From contig CAZHDZ010000001.1 of the NCBI GenBank assembly GCA_964531275.1, positions 144,945 to 208,944 on the forward strand: a stretch of DNA of 64,000 nucleotides, given 5' to 3'. Positions 46,203-63,018 of the stretch are shown here, one piece after another. Source of the stretch: an uncultured Gammaproteobacteria bacterium (lineage in GTDB: Bacteria; Patescibacteriota; Microgenomatia; Levybacterales; GWA1-39-11). The position numbers and the translations under genes were made by a program. Each line of letters opens with the position of its first letter. Within the stretch, counting starts at the first letter, position 1. Below the pieces are notes generated by a model that made no database searches, was not told the origin of the DNA, and saw nothing but the letters and a program-made list of their open reading frames with translations.

Positions 46203-47782
46203 AGTTTGTATTTCGTTCCAGCAATCTTTTCTCTCTTCTCAAAAGAAATTGAACTTGCTTTATCTTTTCTAATGAGGATGCAGCTTTTGTCTTTAGCTGG
46301 ATTTATTTGGATGTAATTATTATATAGACTTCGGGATGCCTTGCTGCCTTCTTTTGCAAGAACCTTTAGGCATTTGCCATAGTAAAAATCAGGAATACTG
46401 TTTTCAAGTAATGTATTCCTCTCATGTTCATACAGCTCAACTTTTGGCATATATGAGGTATACCACGTATATTTATATGCTGAAGGGAGCTTTGCTTCCC
46501 AGATAATTAGATCGTCATATCCATCTACAAATAGTGTGTCATCGGAGTTTGCCAAATTTCTTATTGTTGTCCCTGTGTCCATTATATTTGAAAAATTTGT
46601 AAAGTATTCTGAGCTTGTATCAACTTTTTCATACATAAAGTAGCTCTTATTGGTCAATAAAAATATGGCAGATAAGGCTAATAACGCAATACTGATTACA
46701 CCTAGTCTTCGGGACTTTTTAAGTATCTCGATTGTTAGAAGACTCATGGTGAAGGTAAAAACTAAAAGCCAAGGAGCAACATGAAATGCCTCATAAAATG
46801 TCTGGTTTGCCCCTACTGGTCGAAGATTTACTAAAAAAAGTGTCGCCAATATAAAAAGACTTATTAATACATTTTTTTCCATCTTTGCATAAATAAGCAT
46901 GAGTAATAAAAAACAAATAGAATAAAGAATAAAAAGAATTCGAAGGAAGCCAAATCCGCCCGGAGTGGCTATGAGCACCACGGGATAAAAAATAGAGGTA
47001 AGTAGACTTATAAGTGGAGTAATGCCGGAAGCATCAGGAGCTATAACAAGTTTATTTACAGTAACTAAGTTGAGATAGTAGAACGCAAAATCATAGGTGA
47101 GAAAAATTGAAAAGGGAGCAATGAATATAAGAAGAGAGATAATAGGAATTTTTTTGGTAACTTTTTTAACGAGTGTTAAATATGTTGCTAGCAGAAAAAT
47201 AGCAGCAGGAATAAAAGGTTCCCTGAAGAAAATTATCAAAAAAGCGAGAAAAGGTACCACATATAAATCATATTTGCTTATTCTCCCTTTTAATGCATAA
47301 AAGCAAACACCTACCATATATATAATAAGGTAGCCGACAATGCTTTCAGCCAAGAATCTGTCTCCAAATACATAAAATTTAAATGGTTCGTAAAGAATTG
47401 CTGAAATAAGTATTGGATAACGAAATTTGAGAAAAAGACACATAGTTGAAGCAAAGGAAATAAGAAAAATAATTTGTCTGTGTCTCAGTATGAGGTCCGG
47501 AATTGAAGATGTATTAAGGAGATTTTGGATACCCGCACTAAGATAGGCCATTCCCGGTTGATGATTGAAGAAAAAATCTAAAAATATACGCTTTCCGGAA
47601 TTAATGAAATATCCTCCAAGATAATTAAAGCAATCATCAAAGCATCCAAATGCATTAACTCTCGGGATGTAGAGTTTGTATAGTGCTCCGAAGAGCACAA
47701 TAATTAGGAATATAGAAATGAAGAATAATAGATTCTTTTTGGTCATTTTGTATCTATCCTTTTGCAAATATTGTATCATCAA
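46199..47782 (-). CDS. Polytopic membrane protein with a soluble C-terminal domain, hypothetical
   Basis: 527 aa, the only minus-strand gene in this sub-region. It has more than 10 hydrophobic segments. Its C-terminal roughly 150 aa are hydrophilic. Confidence 0.55.
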   Translation of the reverse strand: MMIQYLQKDRYKMTKKNLLFFISIFLIIVLFGALYKLYIPRVNAFGCFDDCFNYLGGYFINSGKRIFLDFFFNHQPGMAYLSAGIQNLLNTSSIPDLILRHRQIIFLISFASTMCLFLKFRYPILISAILYEPFKFYVFGDRFLAESIVGYLIIYMVGVCFYALKGRISKYDLYVVPFLAFLIIFFREPFIPAAIFLLATYLTLVKKVTKKIPIISLLIFIAPFSIFLTYDFAFYYLNLVTVNKLVIAPDASGITPLISLLTSIFYPVVLIATPGGFGFLRILFILYSICFLLLMLIYAKMEKNVLISLFILATLFLVNLRPVGANQTFYEAFHVAPWLLVFTFTMSLLTIEILKKSRRLGVISIALLALSAIFLLTNKSYFMYEKVDTSSEYFTNFSNIMDTGTTIRNLANSDDTLFVDGYDDLIIWEAKLPSAYKYTWYTSYMPKVELYEHERNTLLENSIPDFYYGKCLKVLAKEGSKASRSLYNNYIQINPAKDKSCILIRKDKASSISFEKREKIAGTKYKL

Positions 47783-47790
47783 ATGTATCT

Positions 47791-48903
47791 ATGGTTATTG
47801 GAATTGATGCAAATGAAGCAAACGTATCAAAAAGAGTTGGCATTTCTGAGTATGCGTACCAAATTTTAACGAAGCTTTATGAATTTCGAAATAAAGGACA
47901 AACCACACATTCATTTGAGATCTACCTAAAAGCAAGGCCTCTTGATTTGCTTCCAAAAGAAGAGAGTTGGTGGAAATACAAAATAGTAAAGCCCCAAAAA
48001 ATGTGGACACAGATAGGCTTGCCATTAAATTTATTCTTCTCGAAGAGACCAGATGTTTTTTTAACTCTTACTCACTACGCACCAAGATTTTCCATGGTTC
48101 CAACGATTGTTTCCGTTATGGACTTATCGTTTTTACATTTTCCCGAAACATTCAAAAAGAATGATCTATATCAATTAACCAGTTGGACAAAATATTCGGT
48201 ACTAAATTCAAAGAGGGTTATTACAATTAGTGAAAGCAGTAAAAATGATATAATTAAATTCTATAAAGTGCCCGAAAATAAGGTAAGAGTTGTTAACATG
48301 GGCCTAAAAGAAATCAAAATGGATTCAGTAAGTAAATCACTCGAAGAGTTTGGTGTAACGAAGAAATTTATACTATTTGTGGGGACTTTGCAGCCAAGAA
48401 AGAATATAGTTCGTCTTATCCAGGCATATTCTATTCTTCCGCAAAATATAAAAGATTCTCATCAATTAGTAATAATTGGTAAAAAAGGTTGGTTATATGA
48501 TGAAATTCTTGAAACTCCAAAAAAATATGGTGTTGAGGAGAGTACTTTATTCTTAGACTATATTACTGATCAGGATCTTCCCTCGTTCTACAAGAAAGCT
48601 TCGGTATATATTCTTCCTAGTCTTTATGAAGGGTTTGGTCTCCCAATTCTTGAGGCTATGCGTTACGGATGCCCAGTACTGACTAGTAATGTTTCAAGTA
48701 TGCCTGAGGCAGGTGGAGATGCTGCAATTTATTTTAATCCCGAAAACACTCAGGATATAGAAGAAAAAATGGAGAAAGTACTTACTGATCACACATTGAG
48801 AGATAGAATGAAAGAGAGAGGGCTTATTCATTATAAGAAATTTACTTGGGAAAAAGCTGCGCGTGAAGTACTGAGTGTTATTGAGGAGGTTATCCAAAAA
48901 TAA
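47791..48903 (+). CDS. Glycosyltransferase family 4
   Basis: The C-terminal domain reads PSLYEGFGLPILEAMRYGCPVLTSNVSSMPEAGGDAAIYF. Confidence 0.8.
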   Translation: MVIGIDANEANVSKRVGISEYAYQILTKLYEFRNKGQTTHSFEIYLKARPLDLLPKEESWWKYKIVKPQKMWTQIGLPLNLFFSKRPDVFLTLTHYAPRFSMVPTIVSVMDLSFLHFPETFKKNDLYQLTSWTKYSVLNSKRVITISESSKNDIIKFYKVPENKVRVVNMGLKEIKMDSVSKSLEEFGVTKKFILFVGTLQPRKNIVRLIQAYSILPQNIKDSHQLVIIGKKGWLYDEILETPKKYGVEESTLFLDYITDQDLPSFYKKASVYILPSLYEGFGLPILEAMRYGCPVLTSNVSSMPEAGGDAAIYFNPENTQDIEEKMEKVLTDHTLRDRMKERGLIHYKKFTWEKAAREVLSVIEEVIQK

Positions 48904-48905
48904 AT

Positions 48906-49460
48906 ATGGGAAAAGTCAAAAGAAGATTAAGTGCCATATTACTGGAAGCTATATGCGCTAAGCTTCGTTGTGCAGGATATGTGCCGCTACATCACTATAG
49001 AAGATTTATCTATAGACTTTTTGGTGTGCAGATAGGTAGAGGCTCTACTATACACATGTTTGCAAGTTTTTATAATCCATTTAATATAAAAATTGGCATC
49101 GACACAATTATTGGAGAATGGTCAGTTCTTGATGGGCGAGCACCTTTGGTAATAGGAAACCATGTTGATATCGCTTCAAACGTAATGATTTATAACGCGG
49201 AGCATGACATACATTCAAAAGATTTTACAAAAGCTCGAATGGAAAAAGTTATTATTGAGGATTACGTTTTTATAGGCCCCCGTGCTATTATTTTGCCTGG
49301 CGTAACAATAGGGCGTGGTAGTGTTGTTGCTGCTGGGGCAGTTGTAACTCGAAGTGTTCCACCACTGACAATTGTTGGCGGTGTACCAGCAAAGGAAATT
49401 AGCACTCGAGAAGAAGGCAGTCTAACTTATAAGCTTGGCAGGGCAGCCTGGTTCCGTTAA
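48906..49460 (+). CDS. Hexapeptide-repeat (LbH) sugar O-acetyltransferase (WbbJ/WcaF/maltose O-acetyltransferase-like)
   Basis: Hexapeptide repeats are present: IGNHVDIASNVMIYNAEHDI...IGPRAIILPGVTIGRGSVVAAGAVVTRSVPPLTIVGGVPAKEI. Confidence 0.8.
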   Translation: MGKVKRRLSAILLEAICAKLRCAGYVPLHHYRRFIYRLFGVQIGRGSTIHMFASFYNPFNIKIGIDTIIGEWSVLDGRAPLVIGNHVDIASNVMIYNAEHDIHSKDFTKARMEKVIIEDYVFIGPRAIILPGVTIGRGSVVAAGAVVTRSVPPLTIVGGVPAKEISTREEGSLTYKLGRAAWFR

Positions 49461-49464
49461 AGCT

Positions 49465-50334
49465 ATGCCCTTTTCATTTATCATTCTTACGTATAACTCC
49501 TCCTCATATATAAGAGGCATTTTAGATTCAATTTTTGATATCGCGGGAGACATAATTTCAAAAGGTCAGGCTGAGGTTCTCGTTGTTGATAACGAATCTT
49601 CTGATGATACTTTAAAAATTGCATATGAATATGGCGAAAAGATTCATATCAAACAATCAGGTGGAAATTTAGGATATGCAAAAGGAATAAACAAAGCAGT
49701 AGAGTTTGCAAAAGGAGACTTTTTGGTAATAGTTAACCCTGACGCAAAGCTTCTCGAATTTGAATACGGGAAAATACTGGACACTTTTGAAAGAGACAAA
49801 AAATTAGCTGCAGCAGGGCTTTCTATTCAAAATTTTGAAGGTATTCATGAAGAGACATGTGGAAATTTTTTTAACCCTTTTACATTCCTTTTGTATGCAA
49901 TGGGATTTGAGAAATTGGCAAAAGTGAGGTTTGCCGGACATAAGGTGCAATACGTAGATTTTGTTAGTGGTGGTTTTATTATTTTTCGAAAATCATACTT
50001 TGACGAACTTAAAGGTTATGATGAGGATTATTTCATGTATGTTGAGGATATGGATATTTGCAAGAGGATTTACAAAAAGGGGCTAAAGACAGCCTTTTTA
50101 CCATATGGCAAAATATTACATAAAGGACAAGGTAGTTCTAGCAGACAGTTTGCAATTGTAAATATCTATAAAGGATTAGTCACTTTTTACTCAAAACACT
50201 CTAACTTTTTCGGCTTGCTGTATGTAAAAATCTTGCTTAGAATAAAAGCGGTACTTATAATTTTTATAGGAACTTTCCTTGGTAAAAAGGATACTATCGG
50301 AGCGTATACGAAAGCTTTGAAGGCAATATCATGA
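49465..50334 (+). CDS. Glycosyltransferase family 2
   Basis: The sequence contains MPFSFIILTYNSSSYIRGILDSI...VLVVDNESSDDT and YFMYVEDMDICKR. The ORF track starts at 49435, but the Met at 49465 gives a canonical GT2 N-terminus and avoids overlap with the upstream gene. Confidence 0.75.
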   Translation: MPFSFIILTYNSSSYIRGILDSIFDIAGDIISKGQAEVLVVDNESSDDTLKIAYEYGEKIHIKQSGGNLGYAKGINKAVEFAKGDFLVIVNPDAKLLEFEYGKILDTFERDKKLAAAGLSIQNFEGIHEETCGNFFNPFTFLLYAMGFEKLAKVRFAGHKVQYVDFVSGGFIIFRKSYFDELKGYDEDYFMYVEDMDICKRIYKKGLKTAFLPYGKILHKGQGSSSRQFAIVNIYKGLVTFYSKHSNFFGLLYVKILLRIKAVLIIFIGTFLGKKDTIGAYTKALKAIS

Positions 50335-53300
50335 AATTAGTCAATAAGATTTTTAAGAATGCGCTTCCAATAATTACATTACTTTTATTGCTCTTTATTC
50401 CTCTTTATCCAAAGCTTCCTTTGATAGATATAAAAAATACATGGGTTTATATTAGGTTCGAGGATTTTCTTGTGCTTTTTGCTATATTTTTTTGGTTCAT
50501 TTTATTGCTTCGCCGTGAGGTTACTTTAAAGACTCCGCTTACCATACCCATCTTGGCGTTTTGGATAATAGGTGCAATTGTCACGATGCATGGGGTAGTT
50601 ATTATTTTCCCAACAATTGCCACAGTTTTTCCTAATGTTGCTCTTCTTGCGTATCTTCGGCATATAGAGTATTTGTCAGTATTTTTTATAGCTTATTCAG
50701 CAGTTAAGAATAAAAAATTCGTAATGGCTTCAATTTGGACAGTCGTAATAACACTTCTGCTCGTAACCCTATACGGTTTTGGACAGAAGTATTTGTCCTT
50801 TCCTGCTTACCTTACGATGAACGAGGAATATGCAAAAGGAATCCCTATAATAATATCCCCACTTAACAGAATATCTTCAACCTTTGCAGGCCATTACGAT
50901 CTGGCAGCATATTTAGTTCTTATTATTCCAATTCTTGCAAGTCTTATTTTCGGGTTTAAAAGTATTATGGCAAAAGCATTTCTTGCTGTTGTCGCGCTTC
51001 TAGGAGTTGTTCTCCTTTTTATGACAGTATCTCGGGTTTCATTCTTTGTGCTATTTATCGCTTTATTTTTTGTTCTGTGGTTTCAAAAGAGAAAACTTGT
51101 TTTTATATTTCTTCCTTTCATTATTATTGGAGGGCTATTTTTTGCTGTTTCAAATTCTTCGCTTATCGAGAGATTTGGAAGCACAGTAAAGGAGGTTGAT
51201 GTATTAGTCGATGCTCAATCTGGAGCTCCAATAGGACACGTAGAGCTTCAACCACGTAAATATTTTGCCGATAAGACTATCCTTGACGAAAAAATAGAGG
51301 CGACCCCTTCGGGTTTTTTAAGACGTGGACGCATAAAGCTTGAGCCAGATGTTCCGCCACAGCTTTCAAAGTATGCAATTCCGAGAAAAATTGGAATTGT
51401 TCAGGCGAAAATAACTTCGACAGGCGAGACTCTGCCTCAAGGAAGTAGCTATATCAATTTGTCGTTGTCTCCTGTTACCGGTAGAATTAATAGTTTTTTC
51501 TATGAATATCCTCCCAATGAAGCGACTAGCCAGGCACAGCTTCGAATTGTCCCCGGAGACTATTTAGTTAAAAGAGCTTCAGCATATGACCTATCATTCA
51601 CTACAAGATTCCAGGGGGAGTGGCCCCATGCGCTCATGGCTTTTGGAAGGAATATACTTTTCGGAAGTGGATATGGTTCCGTTAGTCTTGCCGTTGATAA
51701 CAACTACTATAGAATGCTTGGAGAGACTGGATTATTGGGAACAACCGCATTTCTTGTGCTGTTTGTAATAACAGGAATCTATATAAGAAAGATGCTTCCT
51801 ACGACGGAGTCTCGTGTAATACGGAGCTTTGCCATGGGTTTTGGCGCTGGTTTGATCGGTCTTTCTCTCAATGCAGTGCTTATAGATGTGTTTGAAGCTT
51901 CCAAGGTAGCTTTTGTTCTTTGGTTGCTAACAGGATTAGTGATAGGAGCCTTATCTCTCAATCAGTCTCGGCATTTCAATACATACAAAGAGCTTTTAAA
52001 AGCTGCATACTCTCCTGCCGCTTTTATTGTTTATTTTCTTCTTCTTACGGTTACTATATTTTCTACGACTTTGGTTACTTATTTTAGTGGTGACGACTTC
52101 ACCTGGTTCAGATGGGCTGCTGATTGCAAATTAGGAAACGACTGTGCAAGTATGCTCTCAACAGTAGCTCATTATTTCCTCAATTCTGATGGCTTTTTCT
52201 ACAGACCCGGAACAAAGACGTACTTCCTACTCATGTACCCTTTGTTTTGGCTAAATCAAGTTATGTACCATTTTGTATCTGTCGCCCTCCATTTTGTCGT
52301 AGTAATCCTGCTATATCAACTTGCAAGAAAGATATTTAAGAACGAAATATTGGCAGCTGGTAGTGCTTTTTTATTCCTCATATTAAGTAGTTATCTTGAA
52401 GTAGTTCTTTGGGTTGCAGGTACAGGCCATCTATTCAATGCTGTTTTCATTTTGGCAAGCCTGCTGCTTTTTATTAAATGGGATGAGTCAAAGAACAAAT
52501 TTTATCTTGTTGGAAGTCTTGCGGCAGCGCTTTTATCTGTTGCTTTCCATGAGCTTGGAATAATAACTCCGTTCCTTGCAATTGCATATAAAATTTCTAT
52601 TGCACCAATTGGACTTAAATCATGGCTCAGCCTTGTAAGGGATAAAATATATCTGCTGTTATTTACTCCAGTCATTTTATACCTTCTGATAAGGTACTTT
52701 TCGCATACACATTGGTTCAATGGAGACTACTCTTACAATATCTGGAAATTTCCATTCAATGCTATTGGTAATTCATTTGGATACGCACTCATATCAGCAT
52801 TTGGTCCACTTACTTATCCTGTGTACGAAAAAGTAAGGGATATTCTAAAAACAAATATTCCATTTGCATTAATTTTTGGAATTACAATTATTGCAGTCTT
52901 ATATTTAGTAACACGGTTTGTTTCAAAGCGACTTGATACGCAATCAAAGAAGGTTATTATATTTGCAATTTTGTTTTTCGTAGTATGTCTTATTCCATTT
53001 CTAGGACTTGGGAATATCACATTCAGATATTCATATCTTGCATCTTTCGGAATAGTTATGATACTTATGCTTTGCGTTAATAAGTTATATCAATACTTAT
53101 TTTCTTATGGTCGAGACATAGCGCTTTTTGTAGTAATAGTGATATTTTCAGTATTTAGCTTGGTTCACATAATTCAGGCACAGCAAACAATGATTGAATG
53201 GCGTGGCGCTGGAGGTAGAGTTGAGAAATTTTTAAATTCACTAGACTCCTTATATGAAGATTCATGGTCTCATAATAAAGTTGACTTATACTTTACAAAT

Positions 53301-53516
53301 GTGCCGCTTAAAAACGGAAATGCATGGATTTTTCCAGTGGGACTTGATGATTCTGTTTGGTTTGCTTTTAAAAATAACAATATCGTAACGCACCAGGTTG
53401 CGACCTCTGCTGAGATTCCAAAAGCAATATTTCAGACTCCAACAAGTTGGGTATTCGAGTTTCAGGAGGATGGTAGTCTTAGGAGAGTTTATTTGGAGGA
53501 AAAGCAAAATGATTAA
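50331..53516 (+). CDS. Fusion membrane protein: an N-terminal O-antigen ligase/polymerase-like (Wzy_C) module plus a C-terminal GT-C-like polytopic module
   Basis: 1061 aa. Residues 1-540 are polytopic with a periplasmic loop. The segment ...HALMAFGRNILFGSGYGSVSLAVDNNYYRMLGETGLLG... is typical of the Wzy_C family. Residues 560-1061 form a second set of about 10 TM helices with loop YFSGDDFTWFRWAAD. Confidence 0.6.
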   Translation: MKLVNKIFKNALPIITLLLLLFIPLYPKLPLIDIKNTWVYIRFEDFLVLFAIFFWFILLLRREVTLKTPLTIPILAFWIIGAIVTMHGVVIIFPTIATVFPNVALLAYLRHIEYLSVFFIAYSAVKNKKFVMASIWTVVITLLLVTLYGFGQKYLSFPAYLTMNEEYAKGIPIIISPLNRISSTFAGHYDLAAYLVLIIPILASLIFGFKSIMAKAFLAVVALLGVVLLFMTVSRVSFFVLFIALFFVLWFQKRKLVFIFLPFIIIGGLFFAVSNSSLIERFGSTVKEVDVLVDAQSGAPIGHVELQPRKYFADKTILDEKIEATPSGFLRRGRIKLEPDVPPQLSKYAIPRKIGIVQAKITSTGETLPQGSSYINLSLSPVTGRINSFFYEYPPNEATSQAQLRIVPGDYLVKRASAYDLSFTTRFQGEWPHALMAFGRNILFGSGYGSVSLAVDNNYYRMLGETGLLGTTAFLVLFVITGIYIRKMLPTTESRVIRSFAMGFGAGLIGLSLNAVLIDVFEASKVAFVLWLLTGLVIGALSLNQSRHFNTYKELLKAAYSPAAFIVYFLLLTVTIFSTTLVTYFSGDDFTWFRWAADCKLGNDCASMLSTVAHYFLNSDGFFYRPGTKTYFLLMYPLFWLNQVMYHFVSVALHFVVVILLYQLARKIFKNEILAAGSAFLFLILSSYLEVVLWVAGTGHLFNAVFILASLLLFIKWDESKNKFYLVGSLAAALLSVAFHELGIITPFLAIAYKISIAPIGLKSWLSLVRDKIYLLLFTPVILYLLIRYFSHTHWFNGDYSYNIWKFPFNAIGNSFGYALISAFGPLTYPVYEKVRDILKTNIPFALIFGITIIAVLYLVTRFVSKRLDTQSKKVIIFAILFFVVCLIPFLGLGNITFRYSYLASFGIVMILMLCVNKLYQYLFSYGRDIALFVVIVIFSVFSLVHIIQAQQTMIEWRGAGGRVEKFLNSLDSLYEDSWSHNKVDLYFTNVPLKNGNAWIFPVGLDDSVWFAFKNNNIVTHQVATSAEIPKAIFQTPTSWVFEFQEDGSLRRVYLEEKQND

Positions 53517-54981
53517 GAAAATTTCAGAGTCTAAATGGATAATAATAATGTTTTTAGTTCTGTTTACTTTTCTAGGTTTTATTTTTCGTCTATACAAATT
53601 AGACAACCCAATAGCGGATTGGCACTCGTGGAGGCAAGCAGATACAGCAGCAGTCTCAAGAAACTTTATTAAAGATGGATTTAACCCTCTTTATCCTCAA
53701 TATGATGCTTTAAATCCGCTCAATGAAATCGGACATAATCCACAAAGATACTTCTTTGCGGAATTTCCCCTATATAACATAATCACTTACTATGCGTATC
53801 TTAATTTTGGAATTGATGAACGTTATGCACGAGCAATAAGCGCAATCTTTGCATCACTCACGATCCCTGTGCTTTATCTATTGGCCTCTCGTTATTCTAA
53901 TAAACGTGTTGCCCTGGCATCTTCCTTTTTCTTTGCCGTGCTTCCTTATAACGTATATTACGGTAGGGTGATTATGGCAGATCCGTTATATATATTCTTT
54001 GGTGTATCTGCATTGTATCTTGCTTCAAAATGGATTGAGAAAAATAACATTTTTTTCATGGTACTCGCAAGTATTTCTTTTGCACTCGCCATTCTTACAA
54101 AACCCTACGCTTTAGTTCTTCTTCTTCCTCTTGCATACCTAATTATTAGAAGATGGAAGCTGAAGGCGATTACCACATGGACGATCTACATATATCTTGC
54201 GATTGCAATTATTCCTTTTCTTCTGTGGAGACATCACATCAATCAGTACCCGGAAGGCATGTTTGGTACTGAGTGGTTGTATAACCAGGGTAACATTCGT
54301 TTTACCGGTGCTTATTTTAGGTGGCTTATTTTTGAGCGTATGAACAAACTTATATTTGCAACTGGAGGGTTTGTATTGGTTTTTCTGGGAATAGTAAGAT
54401 CAACATCAAAGAAAGAAGGGTATTTTTATCTTTTATGGCTTGCTGCAATTTTAGGGTTTTTTGTCGTAATTGCACGAGGAAATGTAACACACGATTACTA
54501 TCAATTGCCTATCGTACCCATAGGATGCATTCTTATGGCATTGGGTTTCGATTACCTCATAACTCATGGACAGAGCTATGTTAATAGAGCCTTAAATATA
54601 GGTATTGCCTTGTCTTTGGTTGTACTTATGCTTGCCTTCGGCTGGTATGAGGTGAGGGGCTATTACAACATAAATCATCCAGAAATAGTTGAAGCTGGAA
54701 AGGCGGTAGACCGGTTATTGCCAAAAGACGCTATTGTTATTGCTCCCTACGATAATGATTCCGCATTTTTATACCAAACAAATAGGCATGGCTATACATT
54801 CGGAGGAGATAAGGTTGAGAAATACATGCTTGAAGGTGCTACTCATTTAGTTTCGGTTAATTTTGACGATGTAACGAATTTTTGGATGCAAAAATGCGAT
54901 ATAGTTGAAAAAACATCCTCATATGTCATTGTCGATCTTAGACTTTGCAAGCAAGATGGAAAGGTATTGTCCTCACTATGA
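53509..54981 (+). CDS. ArnT/PMT-like GT-C membrane glycosyltransferase
   Basis: The ORF track starts at 53398, which would overlap the upstream gene by 119 nt. The ATG at 53509 (MIKKISESKW...) overlaps the upstream stop in an ATGATTAA arrangement. The loop reads DWHSWRQADTAAVSRNFIKDGFNPLYPQYD. Confidence 0.65.
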   Translation: MIKKISESKWIIIMFLVLFTFLGFIFRLYKLDNPIADWHSWRQADTAAVSRNFIKDGFNPLYPQYDALNPLNEIGHNPQRYFFAEFPLYNIITYYAYLNFGIDERYARAISAIFASLTIPVLYLLASRYSNKRVALASSFFFAVLPYNVYYGRVIMADPLYIFFGVSALYLASKWIEKNNIFFMVLASISFALAILTKPYALVLLLPLAYLIIRRWKLKAITTWTIYIYLAIAIIPFLLWRHHINQYPEGMFGTEWLYNQGNIRFTGAYFRWLIFERMNKLIFATGGFVLVFLGIVRSTSKKEGYFYLLWLAAILGFFVVIARGNVTHDYYQLPIVPIGCILMALGFDYLITHGQSYVNRALNIGIALSLVVLMLAFGWYEVRGYYNINHPEIVEAGKAVDRLLPKDAIVIAPYDNDSAFLYQTNRHGYTFGGDKVEKYMLEGATHLVSVNFDDVTNFWMQKCDIVEKTSSYVIVDLRLCKQDGKVLSSL

Positions 54982-56150
54982 ACGTTTTGTTTGTAACATA
55001 TGATTTTCCTTATCCAACTAATTCAGGTGGAAAAAATAGAGCTTACCATCTAATAAAGCATACGGCATCAAAAGCTAATATTTTCCTTTTTTCTTTTGTT
55101 CGTGATGACTATAATCCTGAGCATAATGAAGAGCTGATAAAAATTGGAATAAAGGGAATAAAGGTTGTTAAGAGAAAAAAACTGTCTTCATTTTCAAATT
55201 TTCCTAAAACCCTCCTACATAATTCCTCAATATTTAAAACTTTGTATTTCAGTAAAGATATTTTGCAGGATATTGAGGATTTTATTAAAAAAGAAAAAAT
55301 TGATGTTGTCCACTTCGAATCTTCCTATACGGGCTACTACATAGGTAAAGAATTAAAAAAGCTAGGCGTAAGGCAAGTACTAGGCACCGAAAATATTGAG
55401 TTTAGGCTTTATTTTGACTACGCAAAATCCTTTAAAAAACCAATAGTAAGACCATTTATTTCTTACCAGGCAAACAGATTAAAAAATGAGGAATTGGGGA
55501 TGGTGGTTGGAGCAGACTCTGTCACAACAATAACTCAGGAGGAGGCAGACTTCTTAAAGGTTTTGACAAAAGTTACATCTTCAGTAGTTGCAAACGGAAT
55601 CGAGCCTTCCACATATTCTTATAAGTATGATAGATCAATTAAAAAAAACATTCTTTTTGTTGGGAATTTTAGTTATTTTCCAAATGTCGAAGCTGTTGAG
55701 TTTTTCTACAATGAAGCGTTCCCTAAATTGAGAGATGATATTACGCTTACTATTATTGGAAAAAATTGTAAAGACAAATTCCATTTTGAGGATAAACGCA
55801 TTATTATGAAAGATTTTGTAGAAGATATAATTACAGAATATAGAAATGCAGACGCCTTAGTATTTCCAATTCGCATTGGAGGAGGTACAAATTTTAAAGT
55901 TCTTGAGGCAATGTCTTTGGGGGTACCAATAATTGCTCAACCGGAGCGACTTTCGGGATTACGAGCAGTGCCCGGCGAACACTTTCTCAGCGCTATAACC
56001 GGTCAAGAATATGCTGAACAAATTAATGTACTATATGCGGATGGGAAATTAAGAGAGAAATTAGCGGTTAATGCAAGAACGTTAATAGATAAATATTATT
56101 CATGGGAAAAAATTGGCCAAAGCCTTCTTAACGTATGGACATCTCAATAA
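54978..56150 (+). CDS. Glycosyltransferase family 4
   Basis: The protein begins MNVLFVTYDFPYPTNSGGKNRAYHLIKH, and the C-terminal part reads FPIRIGGGTNFKVLEAMSLGVPIIAQP. The start at 54978 gives an ATGA overlap. The ORF track begins at 54945. Confidence 0.8.
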   Translation: MNVLFVTYDFPYPTNSGGKNRAYHLIKHTASKANIFLFSFVRDDYNPEHNEELIKIGIKGIKVVKRKKLSSFSNFPKTLLHNSSIFKTLYFSKDILQDIEDFIKKEKIDVVHFESSYTGYYIGKELKKLGVRQVLGTENIEFRLYFDYAKSFKKPIVRPFISYQANRLKNEELGMVVGADSVTTITQEEADFLKVLTKVTSSVVANGIEPSTYSYKYDRSIKKNILFVGNFSYFPNVEAVEFFYNEAFPKLRDDITLTIIGKNCKDKFHFEDKRIIMKDFVEDIITEYRNADALVFPIRIGGGTNFKVLEAMSLGVPIIAQPERLSGLRAVPGEHFLSAITGQEYAEQINVLYADGKLREKLAVNARTLIDKYYSWEKIGQSLLNVWTSQ

Positions 56151-57013
56151 TCATAGTTGCGTATAATTCAGAGCAAACAATCAGAGATTGCATAGATTCT
56201 GTTATTGGGACCGTAAAAAAACACAGCTTTGAAATACTAATATCGGATAATAGCCGGAACAATAATACAAAGGAATTAGTGGAAGGACATTACGGAAAAA
56301 ATGTCATTTATTTTCAAAATGAAGACAATCTAGGCTTTTCAAAAGGAAATAATAGGGCAGTTGTGAAATCAAAAGGAACGTATGTCCTTTTCTTAAACCC
56401 TGATACAAAGGCATACGCAGGAACTATTGATGGAATGCTGGATTTTATGCAGCAAAATCCTAAGTGTGGAATATCTACCTGTTTTGTCGAATTGCCAGAT
56501 GGATCTTTGGACGACTCCTCTCACCGAGGATTCCCGACGCCCTGGAGAGCACTTATGCACTTTACCGGTATGTCAAAAGTTTTTCCTGCGAGCAAGTTGT
56601 TTGGGGGATATAACTTAACATATCTTGATATAACAAAAACGCACGAAATTGAGGCAGCAGCCGGATCTTTTATGCTCGTTCCGCGTACAGTAGGAGATGA
56701 AATTGGTTGGTGGGATGAAGATTATTTTTTCTATGGTGAGGATATAGATTTTTGTTATACCGTCAAAAATCGAGGTTATGCAGTGTATTTTGTCCCTGAG
56801 TTTAGAGCTTTGCACATGAAAGGAATTTCTAGCGGGATTAAGAAAGTTTCACAAAATGTAACAAAGGCAAGTGCGGAGACCAGAAAATTTGCTACACATC
56901 ATAGATTTAGGGCAATGGAAATTTTTTACGACAAACACTACAAAGATAAATATCCATTTCTTGTAACCCTTCTCGTGAAGGCTGGGATAAAATTTAAAAG
57001 AAAGATTGCATAG
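56135..57013 (+). CDS. Glycosyltransferase family 2
   Basis: The sequence contains MDISIIIVAYNSEQTIRDCIDSV...ILISDNSRNN, NPDTK and YGEDIDFCY. Confidence 0.8.
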   Translation: MDISIIIVAYNSEQTIRDCIDSVIGTVKKHSFEILISDNSRNNNTKELVEGHYGKNVIYFQNEDNLGFSKGNNRAVVKSKGTYVLFLNPDTKAYAGTIDGMLDFMQQNPKCGISTCFVELPDGSLDDSSHRGFPTPWRALMHFTGMSKVFPASKLFGGYNLTYLDITKTHEIEAAAGSFMLVPRTVGDEIGWWDEDYFFYGEDIDFCYTVKNRGYAVYFVPEFRALHMKGISSGIKKVSQNVTKASAETRKFATHHRFRAMEIFYDKHYKDKYPFLVTLLVKAGIKFKRKIA

Positions 57014-57015
57014 TT

Positions 57016-58113
57016 ATGGCAAAAAAGATTGGTATAGATGGAAGGCTTTGGAATGAAAGTGGCGTTGGTCGCTACATACGTAATTTAGTTTTGGGGATTG
57101 ATGCAGCCAAGACAGAAGACTCCTATTTTATCTTCTTAACTCAGGAGACATATGGCAAAGTTATGTTCAAGAACCCTAAATTTACAAAGGTTTTATCAAA
57201 TTCTCGCTGGCATACTGTTTCAGAACAATGGAAATTTAAGGAGGAAATAGAAAGGGAGAATCTGGACCTAATGCATTTTACTTATTTTTCCTATCCTATT
57301 CTTTACAACAGACCATTTGTTATTACTATTCACGATTTGATAATTGACCATTTTCCGACTGGGGTCGCAAGTTCCCTGCCTGCACCAATTTATAAGCTAA
57401 AGCACTTCGGATACAAAAGAATAGTTGCTTCTTCGGTAAATAATGCCAAAAAAATTATTGTTCCATCTGTTGCAACAAAAGACGAGCTCATTGATCATTA
57501 CAAGGCAAAGCCTTCAAAGATTGAAGTTATATATGAAGGGTTTGATGCAGCCATTTCTGGCGGAAAAGGTGGAAAGCTTGTAACCAACAAGGATTTTATT
57601 TTATATGTTGGTAATGCGTATCCTCATAAAAACTTGTCTGTGCTCTTTAAAGCGTTTTCCAAATTAAGAAAAAACTATGATCAGATTGAGCTTGTGTGTA
57701 TCGGTCGTAAAGACTTTTTCTATGACAGAATTCAAAGTGAGGCACCAGAGGGTATTCATTTTCTGAACAATGTTGATGATGCTGCACTTTTCGACTATTA
57801 TAAGAGCGCAAGTCTCTTTGTGATGCCAAGTCTTATGGAAGGATTTGGATTGCCCCTTCTTGAAGCTATGAGTCTTTCGCTTCCTGTTATTAGTTCTGAT
57901 ACTCCTGCTCTAAGAGAAATTGGTGGGGATGCTGTCCTCTATTTTCACCCACATGATTCAGATGAGTTGGAAGAAAAGATAACTATTTTGCTTAGTGATA
58001 AGAAGCTTAGCGCAAAATTAATAGAAAATGGGCAAATGCGATCCCGCAAATTTTTGTGGCAAGAGGCAGTCAGCAAGACAATAAAAGTATATGAAAGTTG
58101 CAATAGTGTATGA
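57016..58113 (+). CDS. Glycosyltransferase family 4
   Basis: The sequence contains MAKKIGIDGRLWNESGVGRYIRNL and PSLMEGFGLPLLEAMSLSLPVISSDTPALREIGGDA. Confidence 0.8.
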   Translation: MAKKIGIDGRLWNESGVGRYIRNLVLGIDAAKTEDSYFIFLTQETYGKVMFKNPKFTKVLSNSRWHTVSEQWKFKEEIERENLDLMHFTYFSYPILYNRPFVITIHDLIIDHFPTGVASSLPAPIYKLKHFGYKRIVASSVNNAKKIIVPSVATKDELIDHYKAKPSKIEVIYEGFDAAISGGKGGKLVTNKDFILYVGNAYPHKNLSVLFKAFSKLRKNYDQIELVCIGRKDFFYDRIQSEAPEGIHFLNNVDDAALFDYYKSASLFVMPSLMEGFGLPLLEAMSLSLPVISSDTPALREIGGDAVLYFHPHDSDELEEKITILLSDKKLSAKLIENGQMRSRKFLWQEAVSKTIKVYESCNSV

Positions 58114-59176
58114 CAGGGTTAATAAGATAGGTGGAGCCGAGAGGGTTCTTGAATCTATAAAAGATCTTTTTCCTGATTCAGTGCTTTTTACCTCAGTTTT
58201 TGATAGTAAAAGAGCGCCTTGGTCGAAAAAATTCACTATCAAAACTTCATTTCTACAGCGCCTTCCTTTCCTGAAAAACCACCACGAATTAATACCATAT
58301 CTTATGCCTATGGCATTTGAATCATTCAGATTCGATGAATTTGAATTAGTTCTATCTGTGACTAGTGAAGCATCAAAAGGTGTGATTGTTCCTCCAAATG
58401 TCAACCATGTTTGCATTTGTCTAACACCAACGAGGTATTTATGGAGTGGATATGATGAGTATTTTAAAAATTCAGTGCTACGTTTTTTAGCGAAGCCTGC
58501 AATTTGGTATTTAAAAAAATGGGATATTCTTGCTTCAAAAAGGCCTGATGATATCATTGCTATATCAAAAACCGTCCAAGATCGAATTAGTAAATATTAC
58601 AAGAGAGATAGTGAAATAATCTACCCACCTTCTGATAGATTATTCAGAGACAAACATAAAGTTATTGCAATAGATGAAAAAAATTACTTTTTGGTGGTTT
58701 CTCGCTTAGTGGATTATAAAAGAGTTGATTTGGCAGTTCGTGCATGCACCAAGTTAAAATTGCCACTTGTAGTTGTAGGTGAAGGCTCAGAAATGGAACG
58801 ACTGGAGGCAATAGCCGGAGATACGATTGTATTTAAGGGAAAGGTTGACGAAGAGAATCTTATCTCCTACTACAATAATTGTCGTGCACTAATATTCCCT
58901 GGTATAGAGGATTTTGGAATAACCATGGTCGAGGTGCAATTGGCAGGAAAACCTGTTATCGCACTTAAAAAGGGTGGAGCAAGTGAAATTGTTATTGAAG
59001 GTAAAACAGGCACCTTTTTTACAAAGCAAAACGTGCAAGCTCTATGTGATGTCTTGATAAATTTTGACGACAATCGTTATAATGGGAAGGAATGTCAAAA
59101 GAATGCTAGGCGTTTTTCTGAACAAAAGTTCAGAACGAGCCTTCTTTCATTTTTAAAGAGACACAAATATATATGA
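58091..59176 (+). CDS. Glycosyltransferase family 4
   Basis: The sequence contains MKVAIVYDRVNKIGGAERVLE and FPGIEDFGITMVEVQLAGKPVIALKKGGASEIV. Confidence 0.8.
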   Translation: MKVAIVYDRVNKIGGAERVLESIKDLFPDSVLFTSVFDSKRAPWSKKFTIKTSFLQRLPFLKNHHELIPYLMPMAFESFRFDEFELVLSVTSEASKGVIVPPNVNHVCICLTPTRYLWSGYDEYFKNSVLRFLAKPAIWYLKKWDILASKRPDDIIAISKTVQDRISKYYKRDSEIIYPPSDRLFRDKHKVIAIDEKNYFLVVSRLVDYKRVDLAVRACTKLKLPLVVVGEGSEMERLEAIAGDTIVFKGKVDEENLISYYNNCRALIFPGIEDFGITMVEVQLAGKPVIALKKGGASEIVIEGKTGTFFTKQNVQALCDVLINFDDNRYNGKECQKNARRFSEQKFRTSLLSFLKRHKYI

Positions 59177-60258
59177 AGGTTGTAATTTTTGCGGGTGGTG
59201 TTGGGACACGTTTGTGGCCTTTATCTAGAAAAAGTGCTCCTAAACAGTTTGAGAAAATTGTAGGAGATCAGTCAATGCTTCAGATTGCAGTAGCGAAACT
59301 TTTTCCTGAGTTCTCTTGGAATGATATTTATATATCTACAGGGACGCATTATGAGTCAATCGTTAGGGAGCAGCTTCCACAGCTTCCTGCAGAGAATATT
59401 CTCATTGAACCTGAAATGCGTGACGTTGGTCCTGCAGTAGGTCTTGTTACAGCACTTTTTGCTAAAAGATTTCCAAATGAACCCTTTGCTATTCTTTGGG
59501 GAAGCGACCATCTTGTAAAAAACGAAGAAGAATTTAGGCGCGCACTTCGCTCTGCTGAGCAAATTGTTAATGAAAACCAAGAAACAATAGTTTTTGTGGG
59601 CCAGAAGCCACGCTTTGCAAATCAGAACTTAGGATATATTGAATTTGGAAAAGAAATTGGTACATATAATGATTTGCCCGTTTTTTCCTTTACTGGTTTT
59701 CAGTATCGTCCCCACTTATCAACGGCAGAGCGTTTTGTAAAAGATGGTCATCACGCATGGAATCTCGGTTATTTTGTTACTACTCCCCAATTTTTATGGA
59801 GCCTTTTTGAAAGATATGCAGGAGATCTACATGTTCAATTGAGACAAATTTATGATGCGTCAGACACTCCTCAATATCAAGAGGTTCTTATGAATATTTA
59901 CCCACAAATCGAGAAAATTTCTTTTGATAATGCAATATTAGAAAAGATGGATGTAAGCTATGGGCGAGTATTATCAGTTGATATAGGGTGGAGCGATATT
60001 GGTGCTTGGGAAGCGTTGAAAGAGGCGTTGAGTAATTCTCAAGAAGAAAATGTTACAAAAGGAAAGGTAATGGTTGAGGATTCTTCTGATAGCTTAGTCT
60101 TTAACTATACGAACCAACTCGTAGTTGGAATAGATCTACAAGGGTATCTTGTTATAAATACAGACGATGTTGTTCTTGTCTGTCCAAAGGATTCTGTTCC
60201 AAAAATAAAGAAGCTTGTAGAAAGTCTTTCAGGCACAGAACACGAATCCCTTACGTAG
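59173..60258 (+). CDS. manC: Mannose-1-phosphate guanylyltransferase (GDP-mannose pyrophosphorylase, no PMI domain)
   Basis: The sequence contains MKVVIFAGGVGTRLWPLSRKSAPKQF and ...GYIEFG.... It is 361 aa and nucleotidyltransferase-only. Confidence 0.8.
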   Translation: MKVVIFAGGVGTRLWPLSRKSAPKQFEKIVGDQSMLQIAVAKLFPEFSWNDIYISTGTHYESIVREQLPQLPAENILIEPEMRDVGPAVGLVTALFAKRFPNEPFAILWGSDHLVKNEEEFRRALRSAEQIVNENQETIVFVGQKPRFANQNLGYIEFGKEIGTYNDLPVFSFTGFQYRPHLSTAERFVKDGHHAWNLGYFVTTPQFLWSLFERYAGDLHVQLRQIYDASDTPQYQEVLMNIYPQIEKISFDNAILEKMDVSYGRVLSVDIGWSDIGAWEALKEALSNSQEENVTKGKVMVEDSSDSLVFNYTNQLVVGIDLQGYLVINTDDVVLVCPKDSVPKIKKLVESLSGTEHESLT

Positions 60259-60260
60259 CT

Positions 60261-60899
60261 ATGATGTATGATGTATCAAAACGCCTGCTTGATATTATCA
60301 TTTCGATAATTGCTCTCATTATTTTTTCCCCAATAATTTTACTTACTGCAATAGCAATTAAACTTAATACGAAAGGCCCGCTTTTAGCAGATACACCTCC
60401 TCGTGTAGGTGAGGGTGGTCATTCTTTTAGAATGTATAAATTCCGTTCAATGGTGGCAAATGCTCATGGAATGCTAACTTCTGACCCTAAGTTTAAAAGC
60501 CTTTTGGACGAATATAAGAAGGGTGGATACAAACTAAAGGGAGATCCACGCATAACCTCCGTTGGTAAATTTATTAGAAAGTATTCTCTTGATGAGATCC
60601 CTCAGTTTGTAAATGTTCTAAGGGGAGATATGAGTGTTGTGGGGCCACGCGCTTATTATCAAGATGAATTACGAGATCAGCAAAAAAAATATCCCCACAC
60701 AAGAGATGCTGTGAAAGTTGTGTTGTCTGTTAAGCCAGGAATTACCGGTGTGTGGCAGGTGTCTGGGAGAAGCGATATTAACTTTGATAAAAGAATTCAA
60801 CTCGATGCACATTATGCCAAAAAGAGATCTATTGTCTATGACGTCCTTTTGATTTTAAAAACCCCACAAGCAATGTTCTCTGGCAAAGGCGCAATGTGA
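60261..60899 (+). CDS. Polyprenyl-phosphate sugar phosphotransferase (small bacterial sugar transferase, PglC/WecP/WbaP-C-terminal type), the initiating enzyme
   Basis: It has a single N-terminal TM helix (LLDIIISIIALIIFSPIILL) and the conserved motifs YKFRSM and DEIPQFVNVLRGDMSVVGPR. Confidence 0.85.
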   Translation: MMYDVSKRLLDIIISIIALIIFSPIILLTAIAIKLNTKGPLLADTPPRVGEGGHSFRMYKFRSMVANAHGMLTSDPKFKSLLDEYKKGGYKLKGDPRITSVGKFIRKYSLDEIPQFVNVLRGDMSVVGPRAYYQDELRDQQKKYPHTRDAVKVVLSVKPGITGVWQVSGRSDINFDKRIQLDAHYAKKRSIVYDVLLILKTPQAMFSGKGAM

Positions 60900-60940
60900 G
60901 GCTAAATGCTGGTTTTTTTATGGCGACACGGTGCAATAAA

Positions 60941-60968
60941 TGACTTTAGTTGCCTGAAGGGGTATAAT
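60941..60968 (+). promoter_or_regulatory. Candidate sigma70-type promoter (-35 TGACTT, 16-nt spacer, -10 TATAAT) upstream of the DUF4012 gene
   Basis: It lies in the 154-bp intergenic gap. TGACTT is at 60941..60946 and TATAAT is at 60963..60968. Confidence 0.35.
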
Positions 60969-61053
60969 AGTTTGAATCAGTAGCGCTTCATAATAGTACC
61001 CTTGTATTGCAATCAACTTTCAAAATATGTTTAAATTAACTGTATTTTGATTA

Positions 61054-63018
61054 TTGGAAATGGCTATGGACGAAAAAGGATTTCAAAAAATTGATCTGAA
61101 TTCACGAGAAGATGCGGTAACACCTCAACCAATGGAGGATAGAGTTATGAGAAAAAAGAAAAAGTTTTCAATTAAAAATAAAAAAATCTTTATGGGGGCA
61201 GGTATTGTAGTTGCAGTACTAGTTCTTCTTGGTGCTTTCGTAGGGTTTAAGGCATTGGGAGTGTACAAGCAAGCCATGAAGACAAAAGCTCAAGCAAGCG
61301 TTGCTTTCGCTAAATTGAAGGAGCAAGACATTGCTGGAGGACGAGAAGAATTGGCAAAAACCAAAATCGAAGTTGAAAGTCTAAAGAAGGAGCTTCAGGG
61401 TATGGCCTTTCTTAAATTTGTGCCATTAGCCAGTGGTTACTTTAATGACGTAGATCACTTAGTCAAAGCTTCTACGTATGGTATTAATGCAGGTATTATT
61501 GGTGCAGATGCTTTAATTCCTTATGTTGACGTGCTTGGTCTAAAGGGTAAGGGTACATTTACGGGTGGCACAGCCCAAGACAGAATCAGAACCGCAGTTC
61601 AAACAATGGGTAAGGTTGTTCCACAGATAGATAGTATTGAGAAGGAATTGGTAAGTGCTCAAAAAGAAATCGACCAGGTTGACCCGGGACATTATCCTCC
61701 TATTGGAAAAGTAAAAAAGGTGCGTGAGCAGCTCCAGCAAGTAAAGGATATTACAAATGGCGCAGTAATTGCGGTCGGCCAGGGAAAACCACTTATCAAA
61801 TCATTGCCATCGCTTCTGGGTGAAAAAGAAGGAAAGAAGTACTTATTATTGTTCCAAAATGACGCTGAGTTGAGACCTACTGGAGGATTTTTGACTTACT
61901 ACGCAATTTTTAGGGTAGAAGAAGGAGATATAAAAGTAGATAGCTCATCCGATATCTACAATCTTGATAACAGCATCTCTGCTCATCCAGCTCCTTCATC
62001 AATCATTAAGCAATACTTCCCTAGTGTTAAGAGTGCTTTCATTAGGGACAGTAACCTTTCCCCTGATTTTGTTGTTGCGATGAAAGATTTTGAATCGCTT
62101 TATGAAAAGTCTTCGCTTAAAAATGACGTTGATGGCATTATTGCAATCAACACCCACTTTTTTGTTAATATCATAAAAATTTTAGGAGAGGTTGAGGCTT
62201 CAGGACTTAAATTCACTGCAGAAAATGAGCCAAAATGTAACTGTCCGTCAGTTGTATACACCCTTGAGAATGAAATTTCTCGTCCTGTTAACTATGTGAA
62301 GACTAATAGAAAAGGTCTTATTGGAGACTTGATGTTTGCAACTCTGGATAAGGCTCTTAAATCATCGCCAAAGCTTTATTGGGGACAACTTTTCCAGCAA
62401 TTTATTGTTGATGCAAATGAGAAGAATATTATGTTCCACTTATATGACAAAGAAGCACAAAAAGGAATTGAAGCATTGAATTGGGCAGGTAGGGTAAGTG
62501 ATTTTAATGGAGACTATATGTACATAAATGACGCTAACTTTGGAGGACAGAAATCAAACCTTTTCGTTGAAAAGACTTTGACGGTAGATTACACCGTAAG
62601 CAATGGTGAAATTAAGAAGAAGGTAACTATTGAATATAAGAACCCAATGCCATACTCTGACTGTAATTTAGAAAGAGGAGGGCTTTGCCTTAATGCAACA
62701 TTAAGGAATTATCAAAGAATGCTAGTTACCAAAGGAAGTGTTTTGGATAACTCGAAAGGATCACAGGTTAAGGTTGGCACATCAGAAGATCTTGGCAAAA
62801 CTGTATTTGATGCCTTTTTCACGGTTAACCCTCTTGGAAAAGCTTCTATGACTTATGAGTATACACTGCCATTTAAAACAACTGATAAGACTCTTCCTGT
62901 TTATATCCAAAAGCAGCCAGGTGTTGACAATATTCCTACAACGATAACGGTAAATGGCAAGAAAGTACAAACCTTCGACCTCAGAGCAGATAAGAAGCTC
63001 GACCTTTCCGGATTCTAA
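61054..63018 (+). CDS. DUF4012-domain protein (membrane-anchored, coiled-coil N-terminal region); polysaccharide-locus associated
   Basis: It has an N-terminal TM helix (IFMGAGIVVAVLVLLGAFVGF). The motif LLLFQNDAELRPTGGFLTYYAIFRVEEGDI resembles the DUF4012 NNAExRPTGG core. Confidence 0.55.
   Translation: MEMAMDEKGFQKIDLNSREDAVTPQPMEDRVMRKKKKFSIKNKKIFMGAGIVVAVLVLLGAFVGFKALGVYKQAMKTKAQASVAFAKLKEQDIAGGREELAKTKIEVESLKKELQGMAFLKFVPLASGYFNDVDHLVKASTYGINAGIIGADALIPYVDVLGLKGKGTFTGGTAQDRIRTAVQTMGKVVPQIDSIEKELVSAQKEIDQVDPGHYPPIGKVKKVREQLQQVKDITNGAVIAVGQGKPLIKSLPSLLGEKEGKKYLLLFQNDAELRPTGGFLTYYAIFRVEEGDIKVDSSSDIYNLDNSISAHPAPSSIIKQYFPSVKSAFIRDSNLSPDFVVAMKDFESLYEKSSLKNDVDGIIAINTHFFVNIIKILGEVEASGLKFTAENEPKCNCPSVVYTLENEISRPVNYVKTNRKGLIGDLMFATLDKALKSSPKLYWGQLFQQFIVDANEKNIMFHLYDKEAQKGIEALNWAGRVSDFNGDYMYINDANFGGQKSNLFVEKTLTVDYTVSNGEIKKKVTIEYKNPMPYSDCNLERGGLCLNATLRNYQRMLVTKGSVLDNSKGSQVKVGTSEDLGKTVFDAFFTVNPLGKASMTYEYTLPFKTTDKTLPVYIQKQPGVDNIPTTITVNGKKVQTFDLRADKKLDLSGF

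Follow-up and report, generated by a model that had tools for sequence, protein, structure and literature searches.

The 64-kb window considered here (the whole stretch of DNA that was analysed, with a G+C content of 34-39%) harbors, at positions 50331-53516 of the plus strand, an open reading frame (ORF) with an ATG start that encodes 1061 amino acids (aa). Its product, hereafter the fusion, is a genuine membrane protein of Microgenomatia, within the candidate phyla radiation (CPR), in which an O-antigen-ligase/polymerase-like module is joined to an unrelated lipid-sugar transferase module; this architecture is uncharacterised, yet it is assembled from known enzyme folds. More than 1,290 homologues of the 1061-aa protein were found and the scan of the GTDB species genomes retrieved 500 relatives (the locus counts given below cover the best 80 of these 500), which rules out a chance ORF. 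The best 120 homologues are nearly all full-length (about 1050-1096 aa), with identities of 51-85%; homologues are named either "hypothetical" or "O-antigen ligase family protein" and come from Candidatus Levybacteria and Patescibacteria. The parts of the ORF are the following:

50331..53516, plus strand: whole ORF, a two-module membrane glycosyltransferase with about 24 membrane helices (full-length AlphaFold2 (AF2) model, homologues)

50331..51965, plus strand: N module (aa 1-545), with 12 predicted transmembrane (TM) helices (DSSP of the model) and a WaaL/Wzy_C-like (GT-C_B) fold (Foldseek)

51186..51590, plus strand: beta-rich soluble insert (aa 286-420; DSSP strands 286-419) within the large outward loop between TM9 and TM10

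51642..51740, plus strand: catalytic-loop motif FGRNILFGSGYGSVSLAVDNNYYRMLGETGLLG (aa 438-470), with D456 at nucleotides 51696-51698 (family profile A3 against 9rmk_A)

51957..52013, plus strand: linker LNQSRHFNTYKELLKAAYS (aa 543-561), predicted cytoplasmic, where split lineages stop and restart

52014..53513, plus strand: C module (aa 562-1061), a polytopic glycosyltransferase of GT-C_A fold (AF2 and Foldseek)

52095-52097, plus strand: D589, within GDDFTW, closely following TM1 of the C module where the first outward loop begins

53259..53513, plus strand: C-terminal alpha/beta domain (aa 977-1061), about 85 aa after the last TM helix, predicted extramembrane, with the motif AW.FPVGL.D..WF

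For the N module, a cytoplasmic location is predicted for both termini. The full-length AF2 model (predicted local distance difference test, pLDDT, 78.7; predicted TM-score, pTM, 0.79) was compared with solved structures by Foldseek, and it matched WaaL (7tpg_B) with a probability of 1.00 and a TM-score on the target of 0.59 and, weakly (probability 0.47), RodA (6pl6). The full-length query gave zero matches to Pfam; on the N half, the Wzy_C profile (PF04932) reached 17.3 bits (E 0.0044) over residues 221-276 only, below the gathering threshold of 31.7 bits. The match breaks off because it is split by the beta-rich insert, which belongs to an outward loop spanning residues 275-458 in the model and occurs also in stand-alone relatives of 500-555 aa; a conserved arginine (R235) lies near the start of the match. 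The same profile matches 25 out of 42 family members (E<=0.01; best E 3.8e-7), most stand-alone relatives carry a precomputed PF04932 match, and NCBIfam gave a weak IctB match for the N module. An earlier inspection of the DNA (the sequence-only reading) had placed an O-antigen ligase/polymerase-like (Wzy_C) module in the N-terminal half of a 1061-aa ORF and had quoted the loop segment listed above as residues 438-470; both the segment and the module are borne out, the latter by the WaaL fold match and by the family members that match Wzy_C, with the query itself below threshold. BLASTP within the window found no N-module paralogue.

The WaaL motif H[NSQ]X9GXX[GTY] starts at the essential H338 of the E. 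coli protein (bioRxiv 10.1101/2022.10.31.514599). The query reads D456-N457-X9-G467-XX-G470; that is, the WaaL spacing is exact and the essential His of WaaL/PglL-type O-oligosaccharyltransferases (O-OTases) is replaced by Asp, a change that the sequence-only reading had overlooked. The search of PDB sequences with profile A3, which covers the catalytic-loop region, gave a single match, 9rmk_A (E 6.9e-4), named an oligosaccharyltransferase by its depositors; in the alignment, EWP.A..AF...P..G.G falls on EWNKALAAFQSAPIFGHG and D456-N falls on the H-N of SHN. The pair D-N was found in 74 of the 80 genome loci (those matching the pattern) and in all the stand-alone relatives inspected, and D-S in the split versions described below, so that the Asp is kept in every fused, split and stand-alone relative matching the pattern. 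The solved SEDS polymerases (8bh1, 8tj3 and 6bar) share the motif HTDF[IV]F..EE.G..G, with the same D..(8)..E.G..G spacing as the N module. According to this motif comparison, D456 occupies the position of both the catalytic His of WaaL/O-OTases and the catalytic Asp of SEDS proteins; in the E. coli RodA-PBP2 complex, D262 was described as the catalytic base "analogous to His338 in WaaL" (PMC10449877). Since the catalytic His is an Asp here, the N module has to be set apart from strict WaaL or PglL and represents a distinct Asp-type clade of the WaaL/Wzy_C fold. By analogy with SEDS polymerases, Asp456 would act as the general base where WaaL/PglL use His.

A second conserved element, IDVFEASK (aa 518-525; window 51882-51905), is found in the short loop that connects TM11 to TM12 on the outer side, and it is nearly invariant from the fused to the distant stand-alone relatives. 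This element may also belong to the active site of the N module, to be compared with D389 of E. coli WaaL.

The C module, modelled alone with 27 homologues (AF2 pLDDT 89.9, pTM 0.90), has about 12-13 TM helices, and its sole confident PDB neighbours in Foldseek are the GT-C_A enzymes STT3, PglB, Pmt4, ArnT and DPY19 (TM-scores 0.40-0.51; probability about 1.00 for most neighbours), with partial matches to Pmt1-Pmt2 and Emb. The claim that the C-terminal 500 aa form an independent polytopic domain of the GT-C (ArnT/PMT/oligosaccharyltransferase (OST)-like) kind is thus upheld by a model of its own and by its structural neighbours. As for curated profiles, zero Pfam matches were found on the C half, where the gathering threshold of PMT_2 (PF13231), 26.1 bits, was not reached; PMT_2 matches 2 of the 42 family members (E 0.0025), and PDB sequence searches with the C-half profile and with the full-length profile found nothing relevant. 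Of the profiles named for mapping in the sequence-only reading, PMT_2 is matched by the downstream gene and has no match on the C half of the query, and Wzy_C is sub-threshold on its N half. By hhalign, the C module aligns with the neighbouring PMT_2 protein (88% probability, E 3e-6), and the C profile gave no match with the PTPS_related GT-C protein encoded at 448-2094; a match to one distant TPR+PMT_2 protein is a further weak link to PMT_2. An exhaustive profile search retrieved at least 85,000 representatives at E<=1e-3 and 650 at E<=1e-30. The superfamily includes fused members of about 1000-1070 aa and stand-alone ones of 450-550 aa, the latter likewise unlabelled by Pfam, and the C module is a large GT-C family outside all curated profiles.

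The position of D589 is the canonical site of the catalytic Asp of GT-C_A enzymes. This residue is unchanged in all the divergent C modules compared (21 out of 21), which represent fused, split and divergent subfamilies, and F585, F590 and P626 are likewise invariant; DDFTW is found in 75 of the 80 loci, and about 40 outward-loop residues are invariant within the family. Besides GDDFTW and the motif of the C-terminal domain, the family shares FFYRP..K, FHELG, GDYSYN, PFN..GN..GY and PFLGLGNI.RYSY. The WWDYG motif of the OSTs PglB, STT3 and AglB is absent, and neither WW nor WWD occurs in the whole protein. Further fused subfamilies of 870-930 aa have shorter and more divergent C modules (24-36% identity, versus 37-41% for N); one of their members carries precomputed Wzy_C and PTPS_related matches. 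The C module might, in principle, be a non-catalytic scaffold or a chain-length regulator that resembles a glycosyltransferase, as its faster evolution across the fused subfamilies and the lack of curated family matches would allow; however, the Asp kept at the catalytic position in all the C modules compared, the three other invariant residues and the invariant outward-loop residues make this very improbable.

Two observations concern the same family. A Cys-X6-Cys pair, CKLGNDCA (aa 599-606; window 52125-52148), is present, within the first outward loop of the C module, in part of the family only, and some lineages have a longer Cys-containing insert; the pair may form a lineage-specific disulfide. 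Moreover, a 679-aa polytopic protein lacking Pfam matches is encoded at 35024-37063 (plus strand); over its first 138 residues it shares 31% identity with the beginning of the C module (E 5.5e-5), and it may be a stand-alone paralogue of the C-module GT-C family.

In the model, the 12 TM helices of the N module are followed by the short linker and then by TM1 of the C module. This helix order, together with positive-inside loops, places the N terminus inside, the D456 loop outside, the linker inside and D589 outside, so that the two putative active sites would face the same extracytoplasmic side; the pTM of the whole chain suggests that the modules have a defined placement relative to each other.

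The fusion gene lies within a conserved operon, and the genes referred to in the following are:

47791..63018, plus strand: conserved operon (Pfam assignments; synteny in 80 genomes)

49435..50334, plus strand: upstream GT2 gene (299 aa), with one C-terminal hydrophobic helix and an ATGA overlap with the fusion gene

53509..54981, plus strand: downstream GT-C gene (490 aa), with PMT_2 (E 3e-13) and PMT (E 3e-12) matches above thresholds and the ATGATTAA overlap with the fusion gene

24229-25482: Wzx-type flippase gene, within the window

The order of the operon genes is GT4, hexapeptide acetyltransferase, GT2, fusion, PMT_2, GT4, GT2, GT4, GT4 and ManC-like nucleoside-triphosphate (NTP) transferase. 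In the window the operon continues past ManC with a Bac_transf priming phosphoglycosyltransferase and then a DUF4012 protein, so that the parts of a glycan pathway present in it are Bac_transf, ManC, four GT4 genes and two GT2 genes. The fusion gene is translationally coupled on both sides: its ATG (50331) shares bases with the TGA that ends the upstream GT2 gene, and its stop codon TAA (53514-53516) overlaps the ATG of the next gene at 53509, which is preceded by GGAGG 9 nt on its 5' side; the overlap with a second GT-C gene had been pointed out in the sequence-only reading, and it was confirmed along with the above-threshold profile matches of that gene. The order from GT4 to ManC is found in all 80 loci as far as the contigs reach; a few of them lack one member, chiefly the upstream GT2, which is present 5' of the fusion gene in most of the 80 loci and was undetected in seven. 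To our knowledge, the biosynthesis of the CPR cell envelope is almost unstudied; since Levy-, Gottesman- and Roizmanbacteria keep this operon gene for gene, its product is probably a major surface glycan.

The upstream GT2 was considered as a possible sugar-donor synthase, and the idea was dropped, its best matches being generic GT2 proteins (TarS, chondroitin synthase). The DUF4012 protein (654 aa, one TM helix; 61054-63018, plus strand) is the last gene product of the operon, encoded after Bac_transf and just before recO; chain-length control and attachment are possibilities for its role.

As regards the phylogenetic distribution, the fusion is present in at least 80 species-level genomes: it is found in all of the best 80 relatives, which belong to Levybacteria, Gottesmanbacteria and Roizmanbacteria (Microgenomatia). 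Among these loci (L005-L084), many GTDB records are titled "uncultured Gammaproteobacteria bacterium" despite a Microgenomatia-type operon, which looks like a bulk mislabel in submitted metagenome-assembled genome records.

Beyond the fused state, two other states were detected. Genuine split versions are present in L003/L004 (two samples), L085 and L088, where a gene of 531-535 aa corresponding to the N module is followed by one of 464-470 aa corresponding to the C module. The split N genes are 35-38% identical to the N half of the query (lowest E 2e-113); between the N and C genes there are stops and a 12-nt spacer or, alternatively, an overlap of a few bases, and both lie in the same operon, with the C gene before PMT_2. 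The split versions searched for at the suggestion of the sequence-only reading hence exist, and the adjacency of the two genes in the same operon supports a functional coupling of the modules. Two other candidates were rejected as artefacts: P0125, cut by a contig end, and P0171, in which a scaffold gap of Ns interrupts the gene. The distant relative P0275, a stand-alone GT-C gene beside ATP synthase genes, has no bearing on the operon. In the more distant loci L089, L090 and L091, on the other hand, the N gene is directly followed by the PMT_2 orthologue and no C module was found anywhere in the locus; in L090 the rest of the operon is intact, up to and including ManC and Bac_transf, and the downstream PMT_2 gene is kept even in the operons lacking the C module. 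Since the operon may lack the C module, encode it by a gene of its own, or have it fused to the N module, the C module is an accessory, fast-evolving partner that was inserted beside the N module and later fused to it.

These data also dispose of the idea that the protein belongs to a single long O-antigen polymerase family, or that an assembly or frameshift artefact joined two genes. Its only prop is that NCBI calls some of the homologues "O-antigen ligase family protein", whereas each half has a fold class of its own, 80 independent genomes carry the fusion intact, and the split versions have two in-frame stops and a start codon of their own. A single known family with no second module, the finding that would have contradicted the sequence-only reading, was looked for and did not emerge, the C half being a separate GT-C fold; both the single-family and the artefact explanations are therefore refuted by the fold matches and by the 80 intact genomes, and we give them practically no credit.

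According to the interpretation that we favour, the operon would specify an undecaprenyl-diphosphate (Und-PP) pathway for a surface glycan, in which Bac_transf would prime the lipid, the GT4 and GT2 enzymes would build the glycan, and the Wzx-type flippase encoded elsewhere in the island would export it. The fusion would then be an outward-facing enzyme with two active sites. Its N module would use the Und-PP-linked glycan as a donor, joining it either to the next unit (as a polymerase) or to a final acceptor (as a ligase); this step is assigned to it because it is the only Wzy_C-type enzyme of the operon. The C module, a GT-C_A glycosyltransferase with Asp589 as the putative catalytic residue, would have joined the N module first as an accessory partner and later by fusion. 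Most likely it would transfer a sugar from a polyprenyl-phosphate-sugar donor onto the glycan on which the N module acts, in such a way that decoration would be coupled to polymerisation or ligation. A decorating role is preferred for it since the pathway exists without the C module, with the cytoplasmic glycosyltransferases unchanged. In monoderm bacteria, GT-C enzymes are known to decorate or attach glycans outside the membrane, and the step proposed for the C module would resemble that of Gtr/Csd-type systems (PMC9574508). The pathway context also includes, at 9702-10430, a GT2 resembling polyprenyl-phosphate-sugar synthases. The data show the two folds, the conserved residues, the outward-facing topology of the model, the operon and its three states, whereas the donors, the acceptors and the choice between polymerase and ligase are inferred; the mechanism as a whole, with polymerisation or ligation of the Und-PP glycan by the N module and extracytoplasmic decoration by the C module, is put forward tentatively, as a reading with a real chance of being correct that is still somewhat short of an even one.

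Several points weigh against it. The query falls below the Pfam thresholds for Wzy_C and PMT_2 alike; model confidence is lowest in the conserved loops of the N module (pLDDT <50 at residues 421-433 and 450-458); the packing of the modules is derived from the pTM alone; the upstream GT2 resembles generic GT2 enzymes and not a polyprenyl-phosphate-sugar synthase; and the sequence alone fits the N module as a polymerase or as a ligase. In addition, the OSTs STT3 and PglB score slightly above Pmt4 and ArnT in the comparison with the C module, which fits an en-bloc transfer equally well.

The last point leads to the main rival, which was the idea of the sequence-only reading: the N module would polymerise Und-PP repeats and the C module, in an OTase-like or ligase step, would move the finished chain en bloc to the final acceptor, be it a protein, a peptidoglycan-bound glycan or a lipid anchor. 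The top fold matches of the C module, STT3 and PglB, use diphosphate-linked oligosaccharide donors, the split and fused states tie the two modules functionally, and in Lactococcus lactis the GT-C enzyme WpsJ attaches to rhamnan a lipid-linked glycan that WpsI polymerises (PMC9574508). However, the Foldseek E-values of the OSTs and of Pmt4/ArnT are only about tenfold apart, the C module lacks WWDYG, and its C-terminal domain is just 85 aa long. Moreover, the existence of operons lacking the C module (L089, L091 and L090, the last with otherwise identical gene content) makes it unlikely that an indispensable ligase step resides in it, and points to the always-present PMT_2 gene as a better candidate; all in all, en-bloc transfer by the C module appears unlikely, albeit plausible enough to deserve attention.

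A related line combines the Asp-type motif with ligation: a SEDS-like, Asp-dependent polymerase on a WaaL scaffold would hand its Und-PP chain to the C module, which would ligate it en bloc to a surface acceptor. We consider this improbable. If true, the fusion would be an oligosaccharyltransferase or ligase of a new kind, assembled from parts unlike PglL, PglB and the LCP enzymes, and it would determine the way in which the main surface glycan of Microgenomatia is anchored.

A further rival is O-linked protein glycosylation, in which the N module would be a PglL/WsaB-like O-OTase acting on S-layer or pilin proteins, with the C module and PMT_2 adding sugars. The sole PDB sequence match of the N catalytic loop is a chain named oligosaccharyltransferase (9rmk_A), the downstream gene matches the PMT protein-mannosyltransferase profile, and ManC is part of the operon. 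Nevertheless, the His that defines WaaL and the O-OTases is an Asp in every relative matching the pattern, the operon contains no evident gene for an acceptor protein, and the PMT and PMT_2 profiles are generic GT-C profiles, so that this explanation, too, has little likelihood.

The fusion is a natural covalent pair of the two GT-C subclasses, one of the Und-PP-dependent ligase/polymerase type and the other of the polyprenyl-phosphate-sugar transferase type. Together, the three states of the operon (C module absent, split or fused) provide a natural experiment on the coupling of extracytoplasmic polymerisation with decoration or attachment. In turn, the His-to-Asp change bridges the motifs of WaaL/PglL and of SEDS proteins, and it may offer a handle on this residue as a generic GT-C_B base.

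The rest of the window has a similar character. Genes for glycan biosynthesis fill almost all of it (1-63018), mostly on the plus strand, and at least 13 of them are polytopic GT-C-type genes, several unlabelled; this glycan island includes two YfhO, one PTPS_related, six PMT_2-type genes (the one directly downstream of the fusion included) and one GT87, in addition to many GT2 and GT4 genes, two DegT aminotransferases, epimerases, methyltransferases and one GNAT. At 9702-10430 a 242-aa AglJ/ArnC-like GT2 is encoded, whose best NCBIfam matches, all sub-threshold, are AglJ, ArnC, PpgS and dolichyl-phosphate hexose transferase; it is directly followed by a GT87-like GT-C gene (the two span 9702-11662, plus strand), with which it probably forms a pair of donor synthase and transferase. 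A 1105-aa membrane protein with about nine TM helices (37827-41144, plus strand) and its 617-aa neighbour (41462-43315, plus strand) have no Pfam matches and share a sub-threshold NCBIfam match to "MmpA family trehalose lipid delivery protein" (E 5e-4 and 1e-8, respectively); according to BLASTP, neither is paralogous to the fusion. Four further polytopic ORFs with 8-11 predicted TM helices (29295-30797, plus; 30800-32287, minus; 46199-47782, minus; 11665-13644, plus) have no Pfam or NCBIfam matches, and the one at 46199-47782 adjoins the operon in several genomes, on either strand.

The literature searched, on Wzy_C with PMT_2 and on O-antigen ligases in CPR bacteria, yielded no description of the architecture of the fusion. 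Both of its folds are already known; what is new here is the covalent pairing of GT-C_B with GT-C_A accompanied by the series of absent, split and fused states, the Asp-type motif on a WaaL scaffold, and a GT-C family outside the profiles. Among the GT-C_B proteins (WaaL, PglL-type O-OTases and Wzy polymerases), the N module shares its fold with WaaL; further features in common with this group are the 12 TM helices with the large outward loop before TM10, the identically spaced loop motif G.G..S...[H/D]N.{9}G..G and the conserved Arg (R235). It differs from them in the invariant Asp in place of His, the beta-rich insert of about 135 aa, the fused second glycosyltransferase and the sub-threshold Pfam match. 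The SEDS proteins RodA and FtsW belong to the same fold class (a weak match), and the motif position of their catalytic Asp and the E.G..G spacing downstream of it are likewise shared; however, they have 10 TM helices instead of 12, no sequence-family match was found between them and the N module, the rest of the HTDF[IV]F..EE.G..G motif differs, and the operon described here is for a Bac_transf-primed glycan and not for peptidoglycan.

The C module, in turn, shares with the GT-C_A enzymes (ArnT, PMT/Pmt4, PglB/STT3 and DPY19) the fold, the Asp after TM1, some 12-13 TM helices and a C-terminal soluble domain, and it is distinguished from them by the lack of Pfam and PDB sequence matches and of WWDYG, by its own set of motifs, and by being fused behind a Wzy_C-type module. 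Lastly, the GtrABC, CsdAB and YfhO systems and the L. lactis WpsI/WpsJ pair illustrate how GT-C enzymes decorate, polymerise and attach lipid-linked glycans outside the membrane, and the sequences of such extracytoplasmic GT-C enzymes diverge fast with acceptor specificity (PMC9574508). In those systems the GT-C enzymes are separate proteins, whereas the gene described here encodes a fusion and has no adjoining GtrA-type flippase or dedicated synthase; their fast divergence, in any case, fits a C module that is an accessory and fast-evolving partner.

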